Shown here one piece after another: positions 1,083 through 43,318 of a stretch of 64,000 bases of DNA. Position 1 is the stretch's first letter; each line of letters starts with the position of its first letter. This DNA comes from Candidatus Harrisonbacteria bacterium (GTDB taxonomy: Bacteria > Patescibacteriota > Minisyncoccia > UBA6257 > 02-FULL-45-10c), in NCBI GenBank assembly GCA_016214655.1, contig JACROC010000005.1:67078-131077 (forward strand), read 5' to 3'. Below the pieces are notes generated by a model. That model did no database searches, had not been told where the DNA came from, and worked only from the letters and a program-made list of their open reading frames with translations. A program made the translations under genes and the position numbers.

Positions 1083-2053
1083 GGTTTTTGTTCTTTTTGT
1101 ATTTTATAAAGTTCCGGGTCAATTGTTCTGATAAAACAAGTTTTGCCGAGGTCGTGGCTCCAGTTTTGCCGGTACGGCCCTTCATAGTACGGCTGAACTG
1201 GTGTTGCTTTGGGGCTTCCAACTAAGCCTTCCGAAGGTAAATTAAAAACCGCGCACAACTCAAAAGAAAGGGGGCTAGCTACCTTATATTCATAAGGCAA
1301 ATTATTTTCCGGATCTTGCGGCGGCATAAATCCGGTAATGTCGTTTTTAAGTTCAACTAACTGAGCTGGAAGCTGGCCCTTCTGAATCCAATAGTTGATA
1401 ATTTCATTTTGTAAAATCTGCAGATCATTGATTCGCCTCTCATCAAACTGGTAAAGCCTGGCCTTAAAAGGAGATCCGGCAGTGAAAAAACCGCCGGCTA
1501 CGCTGATTAAAATTATTAATGCAACTGACCAAGCTAATAAGCGCAGATTTTTTTGAGCCAGCTTATTTCGCAAATCTAAAAGATAATATTCGAAGATAGT
1601 TCCCGCCACCAGAAGAATTACCAATATTTTCAGGAGGAAACGGCCGGTTAAATCTCCGCCCAAAAAATTGTAAACCAGCGTTACTAAATCGGTGATAATA
1701 ACTATGGCCGTCAGAAAAAGCGTGAAGTAAACCAGCCACTTTCTTATTTTTAATTCACGTTTCTCCGGGTTTTTGGAATAATCTTTATATAAAAGCCAGG
1801 AAACTAATAAATAAACCGGGAAAACGATAATTAATGAGGCCATGGACCAGCGGATCGGCCAGGCGACGGACGAATAATAAATCGGAAAAAGCGGATCCGG
1901 AAAAAGAATATTAATATATTGGAACAAAAGAGCTATCAAGCTCCCAGCGCTGATATAAAGAGCAATGATGCCAAGAAGATGCAAAAAAACGTCTTTCGGC
2001 AAACTTTTATTATTTTCATTCATAAGAAAGTTATTTATATTATACCACAGCAA
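1061..2053 (-). CDS. hypothetical polytopic membrane protein (DUF5671-like)
   Basis: Multiple hydrophobic helices and a C-terminal soluble domain. No recognisable catalytic motif. Confidence 0.45.
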   Translation of the reverse strand: MLWYNINNFLMNENNKSLPKDVFLHLLGIIALYISAGSLIALLFQYINILFPDPLFPIYYSSVAWPIRWSMASLIIVFPVYLLVSWLLYKDYSKNPEKRELKIRKWLVYFTLFLTAIVIITDLVTLVYNFLGGDLTGRFLLKILVILLVAGTIFEYYLLDLRNKLAQKNLRLLAWSVALIILISVAGGFFTAGSPFKARLYQFDERRINDLQILQNEIINYWIQKGQLPAQLVELKNDITGFMPPQDPENNLPYEYKVASPLSFELCAVFNLPSEGLVGSPKATPVQPYYEGPYRQNWSHDLGKTCFIRTIDPELYKIQKEQKPWMRSSY

Positions 2054-2083
2054 ATGAAAATCCCCCCTAAGGGAGAGTTTGGT

Positions 2084-2560
2084 TCAATCATCTCTGGCTA
2101 TTACTATTGATAAAGCTGCGATTCGCTCTTGCGGGCGTTGCTTTTCCATAAAAGAAATCCTTACTTTGTTGGCGATCTTGCGGCCGTTGGCAAAATTTAT
2201 CTCCACATCCAAAACAAAAATTTCATTCAATTTCTTGATAACCCAGCGGTTGTTTATGAAAAGTGCCAATCCTCGTGGAGAGCCAATGGTCATATTATTC
2301 AACGTCAGCCATTCAGTATAGACTGCGCCTTGGTTAAAAAAATCTATAGTGATAGCCTTGAGGCCCAAGGATTCATTCTGATATTCAATAACCGTCCCTA
2401 TTTTATCTAGCGGGTCTGCGGTTCCAAAGTTTTCCCAAGGGACGAATCTGCCATTGCGATGCGACAAATCATATTTTCCTATTTTTTCCCATCCCTCACC
2501 TTCATATTTATTCTGATCGGAAAAATCCGGCCTCCTTACGGTCCAGTCTAGTCCGGGCAT
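2084..2560 (-). CDS. hypothetical protein
   Basis: 158-aa ORF co-directional with its neighbours. No motif recognised. Confidence 0.35.
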   Translation of the reverse strand: MPGLDWTVRRPDFSDQNKYEGEGWEKIGKYDLSHRNGRFVPWENFGTADPLDKIGTVIEYQNESLGLKAITIDFFNQGAVYTEWLTLNNMTIGSPRGLALFINNRWVIKKLNEIFVLDVEINFANGRKIANKVRISFMEKQRPQERIAALSIVIARDD

Positions 2561-2641
2561 TTTGACCTATTCTATTTAGGTTTAAGATTCTAATTACAGA
2601 ATGCGTCTAGAATTATCAGAAGTCAATGAATTATGCCGCAG

Positions 2642-3613
2642 TTATTTAATCAACTTTTTAAATTCTTCTACCATTGGAACTTGTTCCGCCTCAACTTTAT
2701 ATTCCGTTGCTATATAATAAGCCGTCCAATCGGCAAAAATCAGAGAAGAAAAGATTTTTTGAAATGGCGTTTTTCCGTTTAGAATAATAACTTCTACCGG
2801 AAATCCACGTTCCCTATATAAACGTTCTGTAACATTCATTCGTTTTAAGATTTTAAGATTATCCGAAGAATCTTTAAGGAAAAGAAAAAAGAAATTTTTG
2901 GAAAGATCCCTGGTGGTATCTTGCGTATCAAATCCGGTCATTTCATTATGGTTAAGCTCTGGAAAGTTATTAATAAAGGCGGGAATTTTGCCGGTTTCAT
3001 TAAATTTAATCTTCCAATTGTAGGCAATGGGGAAGTTTTTCTGCGAAGAATAAATCACCGGGACATGCCCTTTTAATTTTTTAGCTAATGCTTTTCCGTC
3101 GCGTTCTTGCTGGTATGGCCTCAATGAATTAGCTAACTCTAAAGTTTCTCTTAACCCGTTCCTATCCCCCATGATTTTCAGGATGGCCTTAATATTCAGA
3201 CCCGTAGCAGAGCGCGGCTGAAGGTTAAAGTTGGGCATATGAATATATGGTTTCTTGTGTTTTCTTGCCAGATCCATGAGTTTACCGCCAGTACTTACAG
3301 CGGCTATTGGTAATTTTTCTTTTACTGCTTTTAAAAATGTGCTGATGGTTTCCTCGGTGTTGCCAGAATAGGAATTAGCAATAATTAAAGTTTCCTTAAG
3401 CTGGTTTTTAGGAATATTCGGCAGATCATAATTCCGATGCTCAATGATTTCTAACCCCGGATTTCTGATTTTCAGAAGCCCCGCAATTAAATTTGAGCCG
3501 CCCATCCCGGCTACGATAAATTTATCGTATTTTCTCAGGCTTTTTTCGTTCTCTATTTTCGGCTCGTATTCAAATTGTTTCGCAAAGTTTTTAATTGCTT
3601 CATACATTGACAT
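2642..3613 (-). CDS. bifunctional phosphoglucose/phosphomannose isomerase (SIS domain)
   Basis: Two SIS-type motifs (VAGMGGSNL, ANSYSGNTEE) and the archaeal-type PGI/PMI C-terminal region. Confidence 0.7.
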   Translation of the reverse strand: MSMYEAIKNFAKQFEYEPKIENEKSLRKYDKFIVAGMGGSNLIAGLLKIRNPGLEIIEHRNYDLPNIPKNQLKETLIIANSYSGNTEETISTFLKAVKEKLPIAAVSTGGKLMDLARKHKKPYIHMPNFNLQPRSATGLNIKAILKIMGDRNGLRETLELANSLRPYQQERDGKALAKKLKGHVPVIYSSQKNFPIAYNWKIKFNETGKIPAFINNFPELNHNEMTGFDTQDTTRDLSKNFFFLFLKDSSDNLKILKRMNVTERLYRERGFPVEVIILNGKTPFQKIFSSLIFADWTAYYIATEYKVEAEQVPMVEEFKKLIK

Positions 3614-19291: not shown

Positions 19292-19329
19292 AACTGGATT
19301 CTATCAAGGAATCTATCTCAATAACAATT

Positions 19330-19422
19330 CCTAACGCGGCATCTCAAATTTAAATTTAGATCAAGGCGCGAGAAGGAAATCGTAGTTATAACTACCTTTC
19401 CGACAAGCAGCGGTGAGATGAA
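19330..19422 (-). other. structured RNA element, copy 1 (5' of the M23 peptidase gene in minus orientation)
   Basis: Shares conserved GGCGCGAGRAGGAAATCGTA-hairpin-TACCTTTCCGACRAGCA with copy 2. The internal hairpin and the closing stem differ but stay complementary (CATCTCA/TGAGATG). Confidence 0.4.
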
Positions 19423-19531
19423 CTTATTATTTTTTTTGAGGATTATTATTAAGATAGGTTCTTAAACTTTGCTAATTTTCGGATCTTTGTTTACTCTAAT
19501 CTATAGTCATTTGATAACCAGGTAATGATAT

Positions 19532-20539: not shown

Positions 20540-20746
20540 TTATCTTCCGAAACCTCCGCGGCCTCCCCTGAATGCTGGCCGGCGCTTTTTATTGCAATCG
20601 TAGCAATACAAGCGTCCATAGGTGCCATCTTCGCGCTTGGTTGGCTCAAATGGCAGCTCTTTGATCGGAGTGCCGCACTCTGAGCAGGTCAGGTTTAAAG
20701 CTGATACGTCATACATCTGACGTTGCGGCCGATTTTGCATATCCAT
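20540..20746 (-). CDS. small zinc-ribbon protein with RGG/FGR tail
   Basis: CSECG...CYDC four-Cys ribbon. C-terminal RPAFRGGRGGFGR. Confidence 0.5.
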   Translation of the reverse strand: MDMQNRPQRQMYDVSALNLTCSECGTPIKELPFEPTKREDGTYGRLYCYDCNKKRRPAFRGGRGGFGR

Positions 20747-20823
20747 CTCGTTCGCTTAAATTTATTTATATTTTTTCGTATATCTTTAGGCGAACGACTG
20801 TGGCCCTATCTTTACAAAAATCC

Positions 20824-20980
20824 CTTAACGCGTTGCAGGTTAAATTTACTTAGTATCAGGCGCGAGGAGGAAATCGTATCAGTAGATACCTTTCCGACGA
20901 GCAACGCCGTAATAAGTAAATTTAATCGCAACCCTTCGGGATACAGCCAATTTGTATTCATAACTGCGTTGCTCCTCCTC
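20824..20980 (-). other. structured RNA element, copy 2, plus adjacent hairpin-rich region
   Basis: Homologous to copy 1 with a compensatory closing stem (TTAAATTTACTTA/TAAGTAAATTTAA). Followed by a CCCUUCGGG UUCG-tetraloop hairpin. A segment at 20966-20980 is complementary to both halves of the conserved core (possible alternative pairing). Confidence 0.4.
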
Positions 20981-21228
20981 AACGTGCCTATTGGCACAGT
21001 TTCGTCGTCGCACCTGATTCCGAATAAAATTAGCTAGTATCGCATTAGGGAGATTTTATAAAGATAGGGTCTATATTATAATTCGCATGAGCGCTTTCGC
21101 ATTGCCAAAGGCCAAGGGCCGGAGGCGCGCTATTCGCGTGCAACTACTATCGCCTAACTACGATAAGAAAAAGCATAGCACGTTAGCTTATAGAAATCAA
21201 AAACCGCGAATTTATCGCGGCTTTACCA

Positions 21229-21330
21229 TTATCTCATAACCCAAACAGCCACAATAAGCACAACCAGAAGAATCGCCCATCTTAGCAAAAGCGGTTTCCA
21301 AGACATTCCCCAAGACATTCCCCAAGACAT
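21229..21330 (-). CDS. 33-aa hydrophobic peptide with N-terminal MSWG x3 repeat
   Basis: SD AAAGGAG 7 nt upstream. Sequence MSWGMSWGMSWKPLLLRWAILLVVLIVAVWVMR. Encoded partly by a 12-nt tandem repeat x3. Intrinsic terminator CCGCGATAAATTCGCGG plus TTTTT immediately downstream (21195-21225). Confidence 0.35.
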   Translation of the reverse strand: MSWGMSWGMSWKPLLLRWAILLVVLIVAVWVMR

Positions 21331-21410
21331 AGCCAAGCTCCTTTATCAAAGATTAATCTAGCTATAGCTTTATATAAATCGCAAAAAAACTCAACTGTAC
21401 ATATACAAAC

Positions 21411-23051
21411 CTACTCCCTAACCAAATGCTCAAATGCGTACTTTAAGCTAGCACCCACTTTCTTGCCTGGGTTAAAGATATTTTTAGGGTCAAAGATATG
21501 TTTAGTTTCTTCAAAAAGCTTATAAACTTTTTCGCCATACATTTTTTTGAGAAAAGGACTGCGAATTAAGCCATCATTATGTTCGGCGGTAATGGAGCCG
21601 CCATATTCCAAAACAAGATTATATACCTCGTCTGAAAGTCCGCGAATGATCTCGGCAGATTTGGGATCAGCCAAATCCATCAGCGGAATAATATGAAAAT
21701 TGCCATCGCCCACATGCCCGGCAATGGTATAAGTTAGCTCATATCGATCAAGAATTTTATTCAAGCGCGGCAAAAACTCTGGCAGATCTTCCACGCGCAC
21801 TATAAAATCATCGATAAACGGCGCGGTCCTCTTGCCGCGAACGTGTTTTCTTAAAAGATTGAAACTTTCCCGCCGCATTGTCCAATATTTTTTAGCATCT
21901 TCCTCATTCGGGCTGATTCTGAATTTAATTTGCAAAGATTTCAAATTTCGCTTCAAATCTTGCAGTCGATTTTCTAAATTCTTTTCATTATTATCCGCTA
22001 ATTCAACTAATAAAATCAATTTGGGGAAACCGCCGGTAAGCGTCATCCAGGCTTCGGGCAAAAAACTCAAACCCAATTTTATTAAATTTTTCGGCTTTAA
22101 AATCTTGATTAAATCCGGCAGAAAACGCATTGCTAATTTAAGAGTGTGGTCATCAAACGATTCAAAACTTTCCGGCTGGAATTTCATCACTATTCTGATT
22201 ATTTCTAACAGCAGATTTAAATCTTTAAGGAAAATCACTGTCAGCCGCGAATACGGCTTAGGCTTAACCAGTCTGAATTTGATTTTCGTGATAACTCCCA
22301 GAGTTCCCTGCGAACCGACAAAAAGCTTGGTTAAATCAAAAATTTTCCCATCCCAGATATCCCAAAGATTATAACCGGCGGAGTTTTTAGACACATTAGG
22401 CTCGGCTTTCTGCAAAAGATCAAAATTATATTTGGCTAAATCATACATTTTACGGTATATTTCTCCCTCCAAATCACCCCGCCTTCTTTTCATCAATAAT
22501 TCGTCTTCGTTCAGCGGCCTCAAAACATGTTCTTCCCCGTCGCTCAAAACCGTATGCAATTCCATGACATAATTTTCGGTTTTTCCATAGGCCAGCGTCT
22601 TTTCGCCACCGGCATTATTAGCTACCATCCCGCCGACGGCGCAAATTTCCCGTGAAGCGGGATAAGTCGGCAAAATCAAACCATGCTTTAAAGTTTCTTT
22701 TTCAAAGTCTCTGTAGAAAACTCCCGGTTCTACTACTGCATGTCCGCTTTCCGCATTTTGGACGCCAACTTCAATAATTTTATTAAAATATTTTGTAAAA
22801 TCCAAAACCACCGATTCCGAAAGCGGCGCGCCGGTCATATCGGTGCCTCCGGACCTGGGAGTCAAAGAAATGTTCTTATTTTCGTTCGCAAATTTAATTA
22901 ATTTTTTCAGATCTTCAGTATCCTTTGGAAAAACCACCGCTTCCGGCGTTATTTCAAATAAGCTGGCATCGTGGCTGTACTTGGCCTTTGTCGCTTCATC
23001 ATCCAGCACTTCGCCTTTTAATATTTTTTTTAAATCATTATTCAGCGGCAT
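21411..23051 (-). CDS. FAD-binding oxidoreductase (GlcD / D-lactate dehydrogenase-like)
   Basis: FAD-binding PCMH-type N-terminal domain (RSGGTDMTGAPL) and a C-terminal FAD-linked oxidase domain. Confidence 0.75.
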   Translation of the reverse strand: MPLNNDLKKILKGEVLDDEATKAKYSHDASLFEITPEAVVFPKDTEDLKKLIKFANENKNISLTPRSGGTDMTGAPLSESVVLDFTKYFNKIIEVGVQNAESGHAVVEPGVFYRDFEKETLKHGLILPTYPASREICAVGGMVANNAGGEKTLAYGKTENYVMELHTVLSDGEEHVLRPLNEDELLMKRRRGDLEGEIYRKMYDLAKYNFDLLQKAEPNVSKNSAGYNLWDIWDGKIFDLTKLFVGSQGTLGVITKIKFRLVKPKPYSRLTVIFLKDLNLLLEIIRIVMKFQPESFESFDDHTLKLAMRFLPDLIKILKPKNLIKLGLSFLPEAWMTLTGGFPKLILLVELADNNEKNLENRLQDLKRNLKSLQIKFRISPNEEDAKKYWTMRRESFNLLRKHVRGKRTAPFIDDFIVRVEDLPEFLPRLNKILDRYELTYTIAGHVGDGNFHIIPLMDLADPKSAEIIRGLSDEVYNLVLEYGGSITAEHNDGLIRSPFLKKMYGEKVYKLFEETKHIFDPKNIFNPGKKVGASLKYAFEHLVRE

Positions 23052-27606: not shown

Positions 27607-28005
27607 CTACTTTTTCTTTTCTAATTCAAGGCAGACCGAGTTAATGCAATATCTTTTTCCATCAGGTGCAGGCCCGTCGTCAAAAATATGCCCGAGGTGC
27701 GAACCGCATTTTTTACAGACAACTTCAGTTCTTTTCATTCCGTAACTGGCATCTTCGCGAAGCTCAATATTTTCTAGATTAGCCGGTTCAGTGAAACTCG
27801 GCCAGCCTGTTCCGGAATCAAATTTGGTGTCAGAAGAAAAAAGTTCGACGCCGCAAGCTGCGCACCTATACATTCCCTTAGAGTGCTCATTCCAATATTT
27901 TCCGGAAAACGGAGCTTCGGTTCCCTTCTCGCGCATCACTTTATATTGTTCCGAAGTCGGTTCCTTTTTTAGCTCTTTTTCGGTTTTTAGATTTTTTTGA
28001 TTCAT
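27607..28005 (-). CDS. msrB: peptide-methionine (R)-S-oxide reductase MsrB
   Basis: Two CxxC pairs (CAACG, CKKCG) and RCxxC...HLGHIF SelR motifs. Confidence 0.85.
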
Positions 28006-29518: not shown

Positions 29519-29969
29519 ATCTCATCCTGAATTTATATTCTTTAAATCCGGCGCTTTTCCAGAATCTTATTCCGGCTTCGTTTCTGACGTCTACGCTAAG
29601 CTCAATGTTTTTAGCTTTTTTTATTTCAAACCATTTTAAAGCTTCATTTAAAAGCTGTCTGGCAATTCCCCGCTTACGATACTTTTCTGAAACAAAAGCA
29701 TCATAAATAATTCCGATTTTTTTTACGATCGCATAATCTGGCGCCCTTTCCACCCCGGCCCTCAAATAGCCGACCAACTTCCCGTTATCTTCCGCTACCA
29801 AACTCCTGGTGTCTTTATCGTTCAGCCAAAATTTCACGTCCTCCTCCAAAGTTTTATATTCGGAAAATGCTTTATAATATCCATCAATTTCATGGTGGTA
29901 ATCCACCATGCCTTCAATTAAATTCAATAATCCAAGTAAATCTGATTTTTGTAAATTTCTTATAATCAT
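29508..29969 (-). CDS. GNAT family N-acetyltransferase
   Basis: Acetyl-CoA-binding motif RKRGIARQLL...A. Start chosen at MIIRNLQKS, since the track N-terminal extension is low-complexity. -10 TATAGT close to the ATG. Confidence 0.6.
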   Translation of the reverse strand: MIIRNLQKSDLLGLLNLIEGMVDYHHEIDGYYKAFSEYKTLEEDVKFWLNDKDTRSLVAEDNGKLVGYLRAGVERAPDYAIVKKIGIIYDAFVSEKYRKRGIARQLLNEALKWFEIKKAKNIELSVDVRNEAGIRFWKSAGFKEYKFRMRFDL

Positions 29970-30035
29970 ATAGGATTGACTATAGCAAAAATTTGTTATA
30001 AAATATAGGCGGTTCTTAAAAACTAAAAATGCAGT

Positions 30036-39446: not shown

Positions 39447-39604
39447 AATCGAAGTTGTAGCACCGGGCATATTCTTATTATAGCATATTAGTTATGTAAA
39501 AGTACAACCCAGTTGACAGAGTTGACAAGATTTTAAAGAATATAAGGGTGTTGTTGGGATAAAAACTTATAAAACTCCCGCGGAAGGGAAATTTATTATT
39601 CTAA

Positions 39605-40003
39605 TTAAAAATTTAAAAAGAAGATTGCTAACTGCAGTACCGTTGCAAATGCGCCCCAGAAAAGATACGGCAAAAGCAAAACAAAAATCAATTTTGAATA
39701 TTGCCAAATTCTGTATTCAAAAAATGCCAAAGTCCCTAAAATTATTAAAATATCGATTGATGCCGGCCAAAGCGGCCTTAACCCTAGCTGAATTGGGGTG
39801 AATAAAAGATTGGCAGCCAGATTAGCAAGAAAAATCCACAGTAAATTTTTCGGCGCTTCTTTCCTATAAACTAAATAAATCAAATATATTCCCGCGGCCG
39901 CGATCAGCGGATAGATAATCCCCCACGCCAGCCCAAACACCCGTTCCGGCGGAGAAAAAAATGGCTTTTGAATATTCTGATAGAATTCTTGATAAGTTCT
40001 CAC
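39605..40003 (-). CDS. TspO/MBR family (tryptophan-rich sensory protein-like) membrane protein
   Basis: Five TM helices with conserved Trp/Pro positions (GLAWGIIYPLIA, LFTPIQLGLRPLWPA). Confidence 0.65.
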   Translation of the reverse strand: MRTYQEFYQNIQKPFFSPPERVFGLAWGIIYPLIAAAGIYLIYLVYRKEAPKNLLWIFLANLAANLLFTPIQLGLRPLWPASIDILIILGTLAFFEYRIWQYSKLIFVLLLPYLFWGAFATVLQLAIFFLNF

Positions 40004-40080
40004 ATTTTTATTCTACCATACTAAATTCCCGCGGAAGGCAAATTTAGAAACAAAAAACCGCCTAGTTAATCAGGCGGTTA

Positions 40081-40836
40081 TTATTTTTTAGACAAACTCC
40101 AGACAAGAGCAGTGGCATTATCTTCCAAGCCCCGATCCTCTGCCCACTTCATAACATCTTGAGCTGTTGAGCGCCGCATCGCGCATTCTTTGATTTCTTC
40201 AAGAAGCTTGCCGGTGTTGTGATGTCCCGGATCAAAAACTCCATCCGATGCGACCAACACCCACTCTGGATTATGAATCGTATAAATGTCCGGTTCACGC
40301 GAAAGGACTTTGCCGAGATAAGAATCGCCTAAAGCCCGGCTCATTTGCAAACCACGGACTAAAGCACTTAAGTCGGTCCAGATATATCCATCCGCATATA
40401 TTCCGCCGCGCTGTTCCGCCGCTTTCCGCTCTTTAAGATTGGAACGGACATTATGTTCCGGGCTTACATTAAGATTCCCCTCTTGATCCAATACCACTAC
40501 CGGAGAATCACCGAGAACCGCAACCGAAACCCCGGGAATACCATCCAACAGCAGCGCGGCTGAAAAAGTTGAACCCTCACTATAAGCTTCGGTTTGGCTG
40601 TTCAAATCGGCAACCAAGCAGCGCAGGGATTCTTCTGCCTGGCTTTCATCTGTGATCTGAAATAAATCTTTGATTTTTTCCGCGCAAAGTTCCGCAACCG
40701 CTTTCCCGACATGGCCATCCATCACCGCAAGCAGCCAACCTTTTAAATCAGGCTTATCAATCCGCAAGCGGACATATCTGTCTTCCTGATGACTCCTTGG
40801 GCCTTGCCTGATCTCAACACTAACAATGCCTTTCAT
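40081..40836 (-). CDS. PP2C-family serine/threonine phosphatase
   Basis: RSHQEDRY, AVMDGHVG and VASDGVFD metal-binding motifs. Confidence 0.75.
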   Translation of the reverse strand: MKGIVSVEIRQGPRSHQEDRYVRLRIDKPDLKGWLLAVMDGHVGKAVAELCAEKIKDLFQITDESQAEESLRCLVADLNSQTEAYSEGSTFSAALLLDGIPGVSVAVLGDSPVVVLDQEGNLNVSPEHNVRSNLKERKAAEQRGGIYADGYIWTDLSALVRGLQMSRALGDSYLGKVLSREPDIYTIHNPEWVLVASDGVFDPGHHNTGKLLEEIKECAMRRSTAQDVMKWAEDRGLEDNATALVWSLSKK

Positions 40837-40980
40837 TATTCACCCCTCAATAATGCTGATAACAAAATAACTTATCGCGAATCACTCCGTCAATACTCAA
40901 AACTCCTCTGAAAATCAAATTTTATTTTTTTATTATTGCGCCACGACACCGCGGTGTAGTGACGGGCATGTGATATAATG

Positions 40981-41181
40981 CTAAACCAATCTATACTTTT
41001 CATTTCTATAAACTACCCTAACTTTTCTCGTATCTATCTCAATCCATTTTTGGTCCAGCTTATTTTTATAATCCTCTTTCTTTATATAACAATGACCCCA
41101 AATTTTAACTTGGTTTTTCTTATTTTTATCGAAATAAATTTCGGCTAATTTGTTATTTACAATCGCGAAACTCCAGGACAT
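40981..41181 (-). CDS. small protein downstream of XRE regulator (possible toxin partner)
   Basis: 66 aa, basic. Preceded by a repeated operator/promoter cassette identical to the one upstream of 42078..42929. Confidence 0.4.
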   Translation of the reverse strand: MSWSFAIVNNKLAEIYFDKNKKNQVKIWGHCYIKKEDYKNKLDQKWIEIDTRKVRVVYRNEKYRLV

Positions 41182-41263
41182 ATGTTTATTTTATCACAAA
41201 ACAGAGCCACGAGGCGCTGTTTTGATTTTTTACCTCCCGCGGAAGAGAAATTTTATATAAATT

Positions 41264-41566
41264 CTAAACTAAAGAAATTTTCAATTTCCCCTTGAGTGAA
41301 TTAGCGATTTTATTTAGTTTATCCGCTGTAACGTTCTGCTCTCCGCTTTCAATTCTAGCAATCTCGCTCTGAGTGGTTTGCATTTTTTTAGCTAATTCTT
41401 TTTGAGTTAAACCCCTTTTCTTTCTTGCGGAATAAATTTCGTAGCCAAGCGCAAGTCTGTGAAACCTCTCATCGGCTTTCGCCCGAGCTTTTTTAGTTGG
41501 ATATTGCTCTTTTAAAATATCTTCAAAAGAGCGGAATTTAATTTTTGTATTTTGGTTTTTTGTCAT
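41264..41566 (-). CDS. XRE-family helix-turn-helix transcriptional regulator
   Basis: RKKRGLTQKELAKKMQTTQSEIARIESGEQNVTADKLNKIANSL is a canonical Cro/C1-type HTH. Confidence 0.75.
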   Translation of the reverse strand: MTKNQNTKIKFRSFEDILKEQYPTKKARAKADERFHRLALGYEIYSARKKRGLTQKELAKKMQTTQSEIARIESGEQNVTADKLNKIANSLKGKLKISLV

Positions 41567-41680
41567 TATTTTATTTAAATAAAAATAGCATATATGCTAT
41601 ATTTGTCAATGGTGGTTTGTGAATAACTACCCCACTACACCGCGGTGTAGTGACGTGGTAAGTAAAATTAAAGTAAAAAT

Positions 41681-42073
41681 TTATAATTTTACTTCTTTGA
41701 TTTCAATCTGCGATCTACCTTTTCCTTCCTCTTTTGGCTTTTGAAAATTTATAAGTAAACCAATTTTTATTTTGAGAATTCTCATATAATTTTTGATTTG
41801 TTGCTCCTCAGACGCCCCAAGCTCACTACCAACCGCTTTCAACTCCAGAACTACCCTATCCTTCCCGAAACTTACAATTATATCCGGATATCCTTCGCCG
41901 ACATAATGATCTTTGTATTTAAGCTCAACTACTTTTTGATTTTCATATCTGATTTTCGCCAACCTTAAACCAACCTGCATGGCTTTATCATATACATCTT
42001 CCGAAAAACCGGAGCCTAAGGAGCGGTAAACATCCCTGGCGATTTTTTTGATTTTATTCAATTTGTTTTGCAT
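41681..42073 (-). CDS. GxxExxY protein (PD-(D/E)XK nuclease-like)
   Basis: GEGYPDIIV...LELKAV matches the GxxExxY signature. Start taken at MQNKLNKI, 4 nt after the upstream stop. Confidence 0.65.
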   Translation of the reverse strand: MQNKLNKIKKIARDVYRSLGSGFSEDVYDKAMQVGLRLAKIRYENQKVVELKYKDHYVGEGYPDIIVSFGKDRVVLELKAVGSELGASEEQQIKNYMRILKIKIGLLINFQKPKEEGKGRSQIEIKEVKL

Positions 42074-42077
42074 AAGT

Positions 42078-42929
42078 TTATTTTCTCTTATTTTCATCTA
42101 AAGTCTTCCCATTTTTATCTTCCCACTGAGTCCATCCATTTACAGATCTTCCCATGATAACATCTCCAGCAGCGCTCGGACTTCTAAAAATGTGGTCCTT
42201 TGTAAAAATAAAAGATTTGTCATTTTCTTTTTTTAAAACACCGTCATTCTGAAGTTTTTGACGAAGATTTCGGCTGCTCATAGGAAGTCCTCTCCTCTCA
42301 GCTATGCGAACCAATGAACCTTTATAAACCACAAATTCTCCATTCTCAAGTAATAAGCCAGAGCCCCTTGCATCTTTATTTTTTTTATCCTCACAAAAAT
42401 ATTTTTCTTCTGTATCTTTTTTAAGATCGTGAATATCTTGAAATAAAGTAAATCCTAAAAAATTTAAAATAAATTGAATTTTACTAAAAAGTTCATCATT
42501 AACAATCCTTTTGTGTTCTGAAAGCCTGGCTTCTTCTGGTTCTGGTTTTGTTTTATTTTCAATATCATAACGATCTACATGCTTTGCTAATTTTATAGAC
42601 TTACTTTCAAGATATTTTATATCGGCGCTATCTAAATTTTTATTAGTAATTATAACCCCAGTCTCCCAAAATTCTTTTTCTGCGTCATGATTACTAAGTC
42701 TTTGATAAAATTTTTCTGATTGTCCAATATAAACAATCTGTCTTGAAGGATCTTCTCCGGCGCCAAAAAGGAAATAAACTCCTGCCTGATTAACTTCTGA
42801 TCGCTTTCCAAGATCTTTTAATTTATTCCGCGGAACCACAAATACCTCACTATTAAAATTAGCGAGATCAATTATTTTAATTCCGTTTGGATTATCATCA
42901 GGAAGTAATATTGTTATAACTTGCGCCAT
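42078..42929 (-). CDS. GIY-YIG nuclease domain protein with C-terminal DUF4357-like domain
   Basis: N-terminal GVYFLFGAGEDPSRQIVYIGQSE...RLSNHD GIY-YIG core. C-terminal region resembles the DUF4357 domain found on such nucleases. Confidence 0.6.
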   Translation of the reverse strand: MAQVITILLPDDNPNGIKIIDLANFNSEVFVVPRNKLKDLGKRSEVNQAGVYFLFGAGEDPSRQIVYIGQSEKFYQRLSNHDAEKEFWETGVIITNKNLDSADIKYLESKSIKLAKHVDRYDIENKTKPEPEEARLSEHKRIVNDELFSKIQFILNFLGFTLFQDIHDLKKDTEEKYFCEDKKNKDARGSGLLLENGEFVVYKGSLVRIAERRGLPMSSRNLRQKLQNDGVLKKENDKSFIFTKDHIFRSPSAAGDVIMGRSVNGWTQWEDKNGKTLDENKRK

Positions 42930-43318
42930 ATATTTATTTTATCACAAAACAGCGCCACAAGGCGCTGTTTTAATTTTTTGACTCCCGCGGAAGGGAATTT
43001 TTATTTAACTTCTTAATAAACAACCTGCTTAAGCAGACACCCTCGCAAAAAGAAATAAAGTAATTACTTACCTTTAATCTAATGATCCCAAACCCTTATC
43101 GCTATAAGAAAAACCTTAACCGAGAAGAATGCCACAAGATGCATCGCGTAAAACCATATTTCATCAAACATCTGTATTCCCCATATCTTATATGAAATCC
43201 AGAATACCAAAGAATGAAAAACTAAATAAGTTAAACTCCCAATGAATCGATTAGAGTTTGGAGATAAACCATTTGAAGATCTATAATGATGCTGGAATTT
43301 TATCATTTACATACTATC

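Follow-up and report, generated by a model that had tools for sequence, protein, structure and literature searches.

Genes and Features of the Gap

The DNA analyzed here (hereafter, the window) is a stretch of 64,000 nucleotides (nt) from a Candidatus Harrisonbacteria bacterium (GenBank assembly GCA_016214655.1, contig JACROC010000005.1, positions 67,078 to 131,077 of the forward strand). It contains a 664-nt gap (20747–21410) between two genes on the minus strand: a zinc-ribbon-like gene (20540–20746), which is a 68-amino acid (aa) open reading frame (ORF) with a CxxC...CxxC arrangement and an RGG-rich tail, and an FAD-linked oxidase gene (21411–23051), whose product is 100% identical to an NCBI protein recorded for Candidatus Harrisonbacteria. 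The median spacer across the window is 52 nt, and the gap ranks second-largest once a spurious 104-aa ORF is dropped. A preliminary description, made from the letters alone, had called the gap unusually long and non-coding and had noted in it the second copy of a conserved structured element, two hairpins, a segment that could pair with both halves of the core of the element, and a 33-aa ORF with an N-terminal MSWG repeat. The spacer comparison bears out the unusual length, the call of non-coding DNA was right, and every one of these features is present, though several are read differently below. The two annotated ORFs suspected there of being spurious (20723–21037 and 20812–20997) both sit on the structured element, and the 104-aa ORF that runs across it has no homologue in a protein search of 5.8 billion protein clusters, although the DNA element itself is widespread; we agree that neither is a gene.

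Architecture of the Dual-Arm Element

The copy of the element in the gap (copy 2) is full length, spans 270 nt (20802–21071, plus strand), and begins with the P1 5′ strand, followed by arm I, the central hairpin, arm II, and the P1 3′ strand. P1 is the closing stem, in which 20802–20831 pairs with 21042–21071 (both plus strand); its boundaries in all elements were set by the outward extent of pairing. Arm I (20832–20934, plus strand) is a hairpin of ~103 nt comprising a helix (H1), a core helix with tandem G·A pairs, and an apical hairpin (hp1), and it includes the 49-nt core (20858–20906, plus strand; GGCGCGAGGAGGAAATCG, a hairpin, and CCTTTCCGACGAGCAACG) of the direct-repeat family D8. The arms are joined by a central 3-bp hairpin, CCC-UUC-GGG (CCCTTCGGG; 20932–20940, plus strand), which is kept in all full-length homologues with a variable loop, one of its pairs covarying from CG to UA. 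Arm II (20938–21041) is an inverted paralogue of arm I with its purine-type arm on the minus strand, and within it lies the hairpin hp2 (GTGCC-TATT-GGCAC; 20984–20997).

A covariance model built from arm I (R1) matched only three places in the 64 kb: arm I itself (97.1 bits, E = 1.4e-21), arm II on the minus strand (61.9 bits, E = 1e-12), and 19338–19440 on the plus strand (72.5 bits, with mismatches in the H1 3′ strand). The last of these belongs to copy 1 (19308–19461, plus strand), which was delimited by the R1 match and alignment and is an internally deleted, half-size element that keeps P1 and, apart from the 3′ part of H1, arm I, but has neither the central hairpin nor arm II. The core copies at 20858–20906 and 19364–19412 are 82% identical, with the core pattern expected 0.12 times by chance, which upholds the earlier view that the gap holds a second copy. 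A third core candidate in the window (27918–27935) falls inside an msrB-like coding sequence and was set aside as a chance match.

This architecture changes how the smaller features of the gap are understood. The two hairpins exist as described, but are conserved parts of one ~270-nt dual-arm element and not separate features. Likewise, the segment at 20966–20980 (GCGTTGCTCCTCCTC) is indeed complementary to both core halves; it forms the 5′ strand of the arm II core, its complementarity comes from the inverted-paralogue relation between the two arms, and it is not a regulatory feature of its own. The same order of parts recurs in the homologues: a ~30-bp P1, H1, the core with its apical hairpin, the H1 return, a CCC-loop-GGG hairpin, H2, a second core (CCTCCTC and CGTCGTC around a second hairpin), and the H2 and P1 returns. 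The structural model shows a predicted three-way junction of the ~30-bp P1, the 3-bp central hairpin, and two convergent, inverted arms of ~103 nt. Whichever strand is transcribed, the inverted-paralogue design of the arms gives the RNA one purine-type arm on its 5′ side.

Covariation and the Tandem G·A Helix

The fold is well supported by covariation among 22 full-length members, in which 60 of the 74 predicted pairs show compensatory double changes. Cells of the alignment were paired in 91% of cases, compared to 67% with shuffled partners and 34–45% with slid partners, and the covariation score of 0.61 (0.19 when shuffled) was reached in 0 of 500 shuffles. Compensatory changes were found in 17 of 19 pairs of H1 and in all 19 pairs of P1, where they covary between the two ends of the element; this end-to-end covariation requires a single-stranded molecule spanning the whole element.

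For the core helix, 63 arms were aligned, each in its own orientation, revealing a continuous helix in which Watson–Crick pairs alternate with tandem G·A/A·G pairs. It opens with two Watson–Crick pairs (GC in 45 and AU in 12 arms; CG in 49, UA in 9, and GC in 3), followed by a first tandem (G·A in 55 of 63; A·G in 45, plus 11 A·A), a Watson–Crick pair that flips between GC (37) and CG (23), a second tandem (G·A in 60 of 63; A·G in 63 of 63), and a second flipping pair (GC 39, CG 24). Next come either two Watson–Crick pairs (36 arms) or a third tandem G·A (21 arms), and beyond these lie two A-U pairs and a 2x1 loop, with a 5-bp hairpin that covaries at the end. Purines face each other at the G·A positions in 55–63 of the 63 arms, with exchanges of G·A to A·A, and on the complementary strand these purine pairs would become pyrimidine mismatches. 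In the variable helices, read in their own orientation, G·U outnumbers A·C by 22:5 in the pattern-selected arms and 15:5 in the partner arms; on the whole element, the ratio is 59:42 and undecided as to strand, making the count informative only arm-by-arm. From these counts, each arm looks optimized for its own strand.

The helix runs on without a break through the tandem G·A pairs; a 3-nt bulge next to them is lacking, as are C (RUGAUGA) and D (CUGA) boxes, an arrangement unlike that of a kink-turn or box C/D RNA. A 271-nt stretch of copy 2 folds far more stably than expected (z = −8.0), and the minimum-energy fold is the cloverleaf in about half of the members.

Distribution of the Element

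A scan with the core pattern yielded 16 loci in public genomes and about 21 metagenome loci that we judged real, all of Patescibacteria-type composition. The hosts include Saccharibacteria, Harrisonbacteria, and unclassified bins of the Candidate Phyla Radiation (CPR), and the most copies in one genome were five (H52-bin061_1); viral contigs gave 0 core-pattern matches. Ten further loci (L003, L010, L015, L017, L018, L031, L032, L035, L038, and L042) were dropped as chance matches in G+C-rich coding regions. The R1 model found 81 arms in 221 kb, and in all 31 full-length elements (across 40 loci) the arms are adjacent and convergent, the left on the plus strand and the right on the minus strand. 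Length is nearly constant, at 268–278 nt in 22 of 26 elements.

Against Rfam 15, the window returned only a tRNA-Ser at gathering thresholds, and a permissive scan of both copies (E up to 10) gave nothing relevant, with no match to HEARO or IS605. Literature searches also found no description of the element. Judging by these searches, the element, which is widespread in CPR bacteria, matches no described family.

One copy of the element (L026 2485–2752) lies inside a 23S ribosomal RNA (rRNA) gene of Harrisonbacteria RIFCSPLOWO2_02_FULL_45_10c (L026 2027–4310; the same sequence is in L029 and L046). It is contained in a 422-nt insertion that replaces 14 nt at a hairpin apex, at about positions 274–294 of the large-subunit (LSU) rRNA model, and is the only rRNA-borne copy found. 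Many uncharacterised short insertions without ORFs have been described in CPR rRNA genes, some of them suggested to be RNase III-type intervening sequences (Tsurumaki et al. 2024, PMC11270868). On the same L026 sequence, we noted a second copy of the element (1533–1803) about 220 nt upstream of the 23S rRNA gene, and two further insertions (69 nt and ~21 nt) downstream within that gene.

Placement and Mobility

Comparison with two relatives of the window, L048 (FAD oxidase 77% identical) and the more distant L050 (70% identity), indicates that both window copies occupy sites that are empty elsewhere. At copy 2, the window has ~330 nt extra relative to L048 and L050, lying exactly between two conserved hairpins in the 5′ untranslated region (UTR) of the zinc-ribbon gene. 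Copy 1 is absent from the orthologous 89-nt HGSNAT/M23 spacer in L048, and an arm-model scan found no element copies in the 32 kb of L048–L050. Should transcription of the zinc-ribbon gene start at the orthologous promoter, copy 2 would be read on the minus strand as part of the 5′ UTR. Elsewhere, two copies on different contigs of one genome (L009 and L012) have bodies that are 93% identical, with downstream flanks only 61% identical, within the 53–63% of other pairs compared (the upstream flank was too short to score).

These traits are those of a MITE (a transposable element of the miniature inverted-repeat type): ~30-bp terminal inverted repeats (P1) at the ends of all full-length copies, several copies per genome with near-identical ones at unrelated sites, and filled versus empty orthologous sites. 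Copies are often paired 0.3–1.8 kb apart around one or two small genes, as in L022 (2499–2768 and 4532–4804), L028 (5174–5450 and 5769–6040), and the window (19308–19461 and 20802–21071). We considered the window pair as a composite transposon and rejected this, the intervening genes being syntenic in the copy-free L048. In L009 (193–518), the base of P1 is a terminator-like palindrome (AAAAACCCGCCCTAAGGCGGATTTTT), and past the right end the initial sequence of the element appears again before the contig runs out, which suggests tandem elements sharing the palindrome.

The neighbors of the element follow no rule. Flanking genes are unrelated and variable in orientation, arranged in tandem in 12 cases, divergently in 5, and convergently in 3, roughly as expected at random. 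A riboswitch-like or other cis-regulatory leader does not agree with homologues that lie in any orientation to unrelated genes, with one inside a 23S rRNA. Many copies reach within 2–16 nt of flanking start or stop codons, also between co-directional genes (in L041, with 4-nt gaps on both sides), and one provides the last 8 codons and stop of a gene. Such copies fill the spacers between genes, leaving no room for an outside promoter or terminator.

This crowding bears on a different view of the element, namely a family of free-standing, trans-acting noncoding RNA genes in which each purine-type arm is a hairpin RNA of ~100 nt whose tandem G·A helix is bound by a conserved protein; the convergent pairing of the arms would then be a matter of gene organization and not a mobile-element trait. 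Several observations sit comfortably with such genes: strong core conservation across distant lineages, near-constant length, the excess of G·U over A·C on the own strand of both arms, subfamilies common to several genomes, homologous neighbors at L006 and L014, and placement independent of the orientation of neighboring genes. However, covariation in 19 of 19 P1 pairs needs one molecule across both arms, a conserved promoter or terminator is not evident, and copies lie 2–4 nt from genes on both sides, with one in 23S rRNA. Copies are also absent at orthologous sites in close relatives, the 32 kb of L048–L050 hold none, and we regard separate RNA genes as an unlikely explanation. The neighbors in L006 and L014 (242 and 250 aa) were also considered as intervening-sequence proteins and rejected, as they are of DeoR helix-turn-helix type and not 23S_rRNA_IVP.

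The palindromic layout raises the further prospect that the element acts as DNA, as a repeat of the REP/BIME/REPIN or transposon-end type whose hairpins, formed in single-stranded DNA or as cruciforms on both strands, are bound by a transposase, recombinase, or nucleoid protein, with the RNA fold being incidental. Strand symmetry is perfect (31 of 31 convergent, each arm appearing optimized on its own strand), the ~30-bp terminal inverted repeats often end in AGAACC...GGTTCT, recent intragenomic copies and filled versus empty sites are present, and copies cluster 0.4–2 kb apart, all of which would suit a DNA-level repeat. Even so, no transposase gene of the Y1/RAYT, IS110, TnpB, or any other kind turned up close to a copy, nor was a target-site duplication seen; the tandem G·A helix, with its G·A to A·A exchanges and G·U bias, bears typical RNA signatures, and tolerance of the element in a 23S rRNA gene and in packed operons argues that the fold of the transcript matters. 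A role confined to DNA therefore seems to us quite improbable.

Proposed Mechanism and Comparison with Known Systems

Overall, we consider the best explanation, and a slightly favored one in absolute terms, to be that the gap is composite and that the element is a mobile, orientation-symmetric insertion module acting at the RNA level. The element would be a non-autonomous, orientation-independent module resembling both MITEs and rRNA intervening sequences, and would be co-transcribed with its host RNA, whether a UTR, an intercistronic spacer, or 23S rRNA. With ~30 bp of double-stranded RNA closing it, the self-contained fold may keep the insertion harmless, and the P1 stem probably also turns the element into a site of RNase III-type processing. 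A putative partner could recognize the conserved surface offered by the G·A helix, and the two inverted arms would let the element function in either orientation.

A bolder form of this reading, which we hold only tentatively and think rather doubtful, is that the dual-arm element represents a new CPR-specific class of mobile structured RNA with the tandem-G·A hairpin as its working part, either protein-binding or a catalytic/self-processing module for excision or spread. On this view, the strictly convergent layout of two arms would be adaptive, allowing the element to work whichever way the host transcribes it, and the class, if real, would account for a portion of the short, uncharacterised inserts of CPR rRNA genes.

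Several points weigh against an RNA-level insertion module. No transposase, recombinase, or reverse-transcriptase gene was seen within 2.5 kb of any copy, and no direct repeat was visible at 26 inspected junctions, the ends of the elements being known only from the extent of pairing. The G·U and A·C counts come from a model-fitted alignment of mutually related sequences, and for copy 2 the energy model favors an arm-to-arm rod over the covariation-supported cloverleaf (−104 vs. −82 kcal/mol). The near-invariance of the arm I core is partly an artefact of the exact-match search pattern; core conservation across distant lineages exceeds expectation for a purely selfish repeat and hints at a host function. 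Finally, L006 and L014 keep a copy beside homologous genes, so some copies are stable in the long term.

By analogy, the module appears most like rRNA intervening sequences and structured MITE-type repeats such as Correia (Neisseria), ERIC/IRU (enterobacteria), and RPE (Rickettsia). Intervening sequences of 23S rRNA are excised by RNase III in Salmonella, Leptospira, and Coxiella; as in these, the element lacks an ORF, has a self-contained fold with a long closing stem, is sporadically distributed, and in one case occupies the tip of a hairpin in 23S rRNA. It differs in that most copies are in mRNA spacers or UTRs with several per genome, in its conserved core and near-constant length of ~270 nt, and in its LSU ~274–294 site, which is not the classical helix 25 or helix 45. 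With the Correia, ERIC, and RPE repeats, the element shares multiple copies in the form of imperfect palindromes with terminal inverted repeats, placement in either orientation in transcribed intergenic regions, filled versus empty sites, and overlap with gene ends; Correia elements are also substrates of RNase III. In contrast to these repeats, neither target-site duplication nor a partner transposase was seen for the element, its helices covary widely around a core that is fixed across very distant lineages, and it forms a dual-arm three-way junction with tandem G·A helices.

Other systems show a more limited likeness. The RAYT-mobilized REP/BIME/REPIN sequences likewise have a hairpin as the basic unit and an inverted doublet as the replicating form, with single units that look like decayed remnants. 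REP units are 20–40 nt and G+C-rich, whereas those of the element are ~103 nt and A+T-rich, carry neither GTAG nor CGTC as a tag, and show no complementarity to each other along the helices, and no RAYT/Y1 transposase gene was seen near the copies. The bridge RNAs of IS110 and the omega RNAs of IscB and TnpB are comparable in size (about 180–270 nt) and also have two stem-loops with an internal loop or non-canonical helix; however, no recombinase or nuclease gene adjoins the element, its flanking ORFs are housekeeping genes, and its "loops" are conserved and not programmable. TIGR-Tas arrays, considered because they are found in parasitic bacteria, were rejected on the basis of their 36-nt units, 9-nt spacers, and box C/D-like motifs.

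CPR bacteria (Patescibacteria) make up a large share of bacterial diversity and have tiny genomes whose rRNA genes are full of unexplained insertions. If the insertion-module reading is true, the element would be a new RNA family for Rfam, would account for some of the "uncharacterised short insertions" in CPR rRNA, and would offer a tractable case of a streamlined genome tolerating, or using, a spreading structured insert. Specialists in RNA and in CPR bacteria should find the element of real interest; the peptide, described next, is ordinary.

Composite Origin of the Gap

Alignment with the relatives shows the 664-nt gap to be a composite in which an ancestral spacer of ~126 nt was enlarged by a gene-deletion relic plus the insertion of the element. 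In L050, 126 nt separate the FAD-oxidase stop codon from the zinc-ribbon gene, with neither a cupredoxin relic nor the element. In L048, four genes lie between the two (1799–2034 and 2050–3588), encoding a ~78-aa pilin-like ORF (KGFTLAELLIV motif), a dCMP deaminase, and two cupredoxins. The spacer between the FAD oxidase and zinc-ribbon genes is a hotspot of gene gain and loss. The ancestral spacer started at the FAD-oxidase stop codon, took in a promoter and 5′ UTR, and ended at the zinc-ribbon/RGG gene. One enlargement came from a block of genes at the site that was mostly deleted, leaving a cupredoxin promoter, Shine–Dalgarno sequence, and the first 28 codons fused to an old terminator; the other was a ~330-nt insertion into the zinc-ribbon 5′ UTR, 270 nt of which are the full-length element.

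The relic is the 33-aa ORF (21229–21330, minus strand), which phmmer and DNA alignment place as the remains of the signal peptide of a lipoprotein cupredoxin. Among 1.84 billion representative proteins, phmmer returned a sole match to the peptide, P0121 (184 aa), whose residues 1–28 are 89% identical to it. This protein is a lipoprotein-type cupredoxin (MSWGASWKPLLLRWAILLVVLIVAVLCMSGC...) that is intact in L048, where it is encoded at 2633–3187. At the DNA level, 21400–21235 on the minus strand of the window matches the upstream region, Shine–Dalgarno sequence, and first ~28 codons of the P0121 gene, and the relic promoter and Shine–Dalgarno region (21331–21400, minus strand) aligns with L048 2575–2632. 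The alignment breaks at ATGAG and continues in the terminator and next promoter that follow the second L048 cupredoxin gene, a jump indicating that the deletion took the bodies of two cupredoxin genes and left the signal peptide.

The ORF was then further altered by a 12-nt tandem duplication (21298–21330, minus strand; 2.8 copies with 100% match by Tandem Repeats Finder), which changed MSWGASWK to MSWGMSWGMSWK; the L048 relative has a single unit. The sequence AAAGGAG sits 7 nt upstream of the ATG, and an intrinsic-terminator-like hairpin follows the ORF (21200–21224, minus strand), its T-run overlapping the −35 box of the next promoter. In L048, the orthologous hairpin is the terminator behind the cupredoxin genes. 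No small ORF is present at the orthologous position in L048 or L050, and an exact look-up found no copy of the 33-aa peptide on record elsewhere.

The preliminary description had likened the ORF to a type I toxin, a small membrane peptide, or a leader peptide. The Shine–Dalgarno sequence, 12-nt repeat, hydrophobic segment, and terminator on which it drew are all real, and a short hydrophobic ORF with a Shine–Dalgarno site and terminator is indeed what type I toxin and small membrane peptide genes share; but the ORF is a truncated signal peptide that is not conserved as a small gene and, unlike type I toxin genes, was recently altered by a duplication. After the ORF come first a terminator and then a distinct promoter conserved by orthology, which is not the arrangement of a leader peptide or attenuator. 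As for an antisense RNA of the type I kind, the only consensus promoter on the plus strand (21055–21082) is at chance level. The comparison with relatives, suggested at the time as a check, shows the ORF to be, on present alignments, a deletion relic of a cupredoxin gene and not a conserved gene for a toxin, membrane peptide, or leader peptide. The 33-aa peptide may still be produced. The alternative then named, that the gap is a decayed pseudogene, holds for the ORF part of the gap only.

Taken together, a reading of the gap as a riboswitch-like switch between the core and its complementary segment, alongside a functional 33-aa toxin, membrane, or leader peptide, is highly improbable and essentially excluded. 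The complementarity is real, arm-to-arm pairing is the predicted minimum-energy fold of copy 2, and the ORF retains its Shine–Dalgarno sequence, ATG, hydrophobic segment, and terminator; yet the homologues have no consistent downstream gene or orientation, no Rfam riboswitch matched, the ORF corresponds by orthology to codons 1–28 of the gene for a 184-aa cupredoxin, the relatives have no such small gene, and the exact peptide is on record nowhere else. Two annotation corrections follow: ORF calls that cross the element are spurious, and the MSWG "peptide gene" is what a deletion left behind.

The Zinc-Ribbon 5′ UTR and Other Features of the Window

The promoter of the zinc-ribbon gene (21172–21200, minus strand; TTGATT, 17 nt, TATGCT) scores below the threshold of the consensus scan, and we infer it from orthology, the corresponding promoters being TTGACT-17-TATACT in L050 and TTGATT-17-TATACT in L048. 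Downstream of it lie the two 5′-UTR hairpins that border the insertion. The first (21148–21165, minus strand; TATCG-tagttagg-CGATA) is invariant in the window, L048, and L050, and the second (20747–20801, minus strand; GTCGTTCGCCTA ... TAAGCGAACGA), directly before the ATG, is kept in all three. The promoter and both hairpins of this gene are thus kept across three Harrisonbacteria genomes (UTR at 20747–20801 and 21130–21200 in the window), and the conserved 5′ UTR looks like the autoregulatory leader of an RNA-binding protein.

By alignment, the ~330-nt insertion relative to L048 and L050 consists of the element and ~58 nt of extra G+C-rich sequence (21072–21129). The G+C-rich stretch 21078–21172 is not unusually structured (fold z = −0.4). 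A sigma-70-like site (21055–21082, plus strand; TTTATA, 16 nt, TATAAT; 10 of 12 matches) points outward from the right end of the element, antisense to the zinc-ribbon 5′ UTR, at a frequency within chance expectation for the region.

Elsewhere in the window, two other stretches are devoid of ORFs of at least 60 aa, 2561–3443 (883 nt) and 29519–30035 (517 nt), and neither had an Rfam match at gathering thresholds. The region 39575–43016 holds a repeat family with five copies of CTCCCGCGGAAGGGAAATTT, plus two 90-nt copies (41179–41268 and 42927–43016) that are 88% identical and each carry a hairpin and T-run. This family may represent a repeated terminator/promoter module in a gene cluster.

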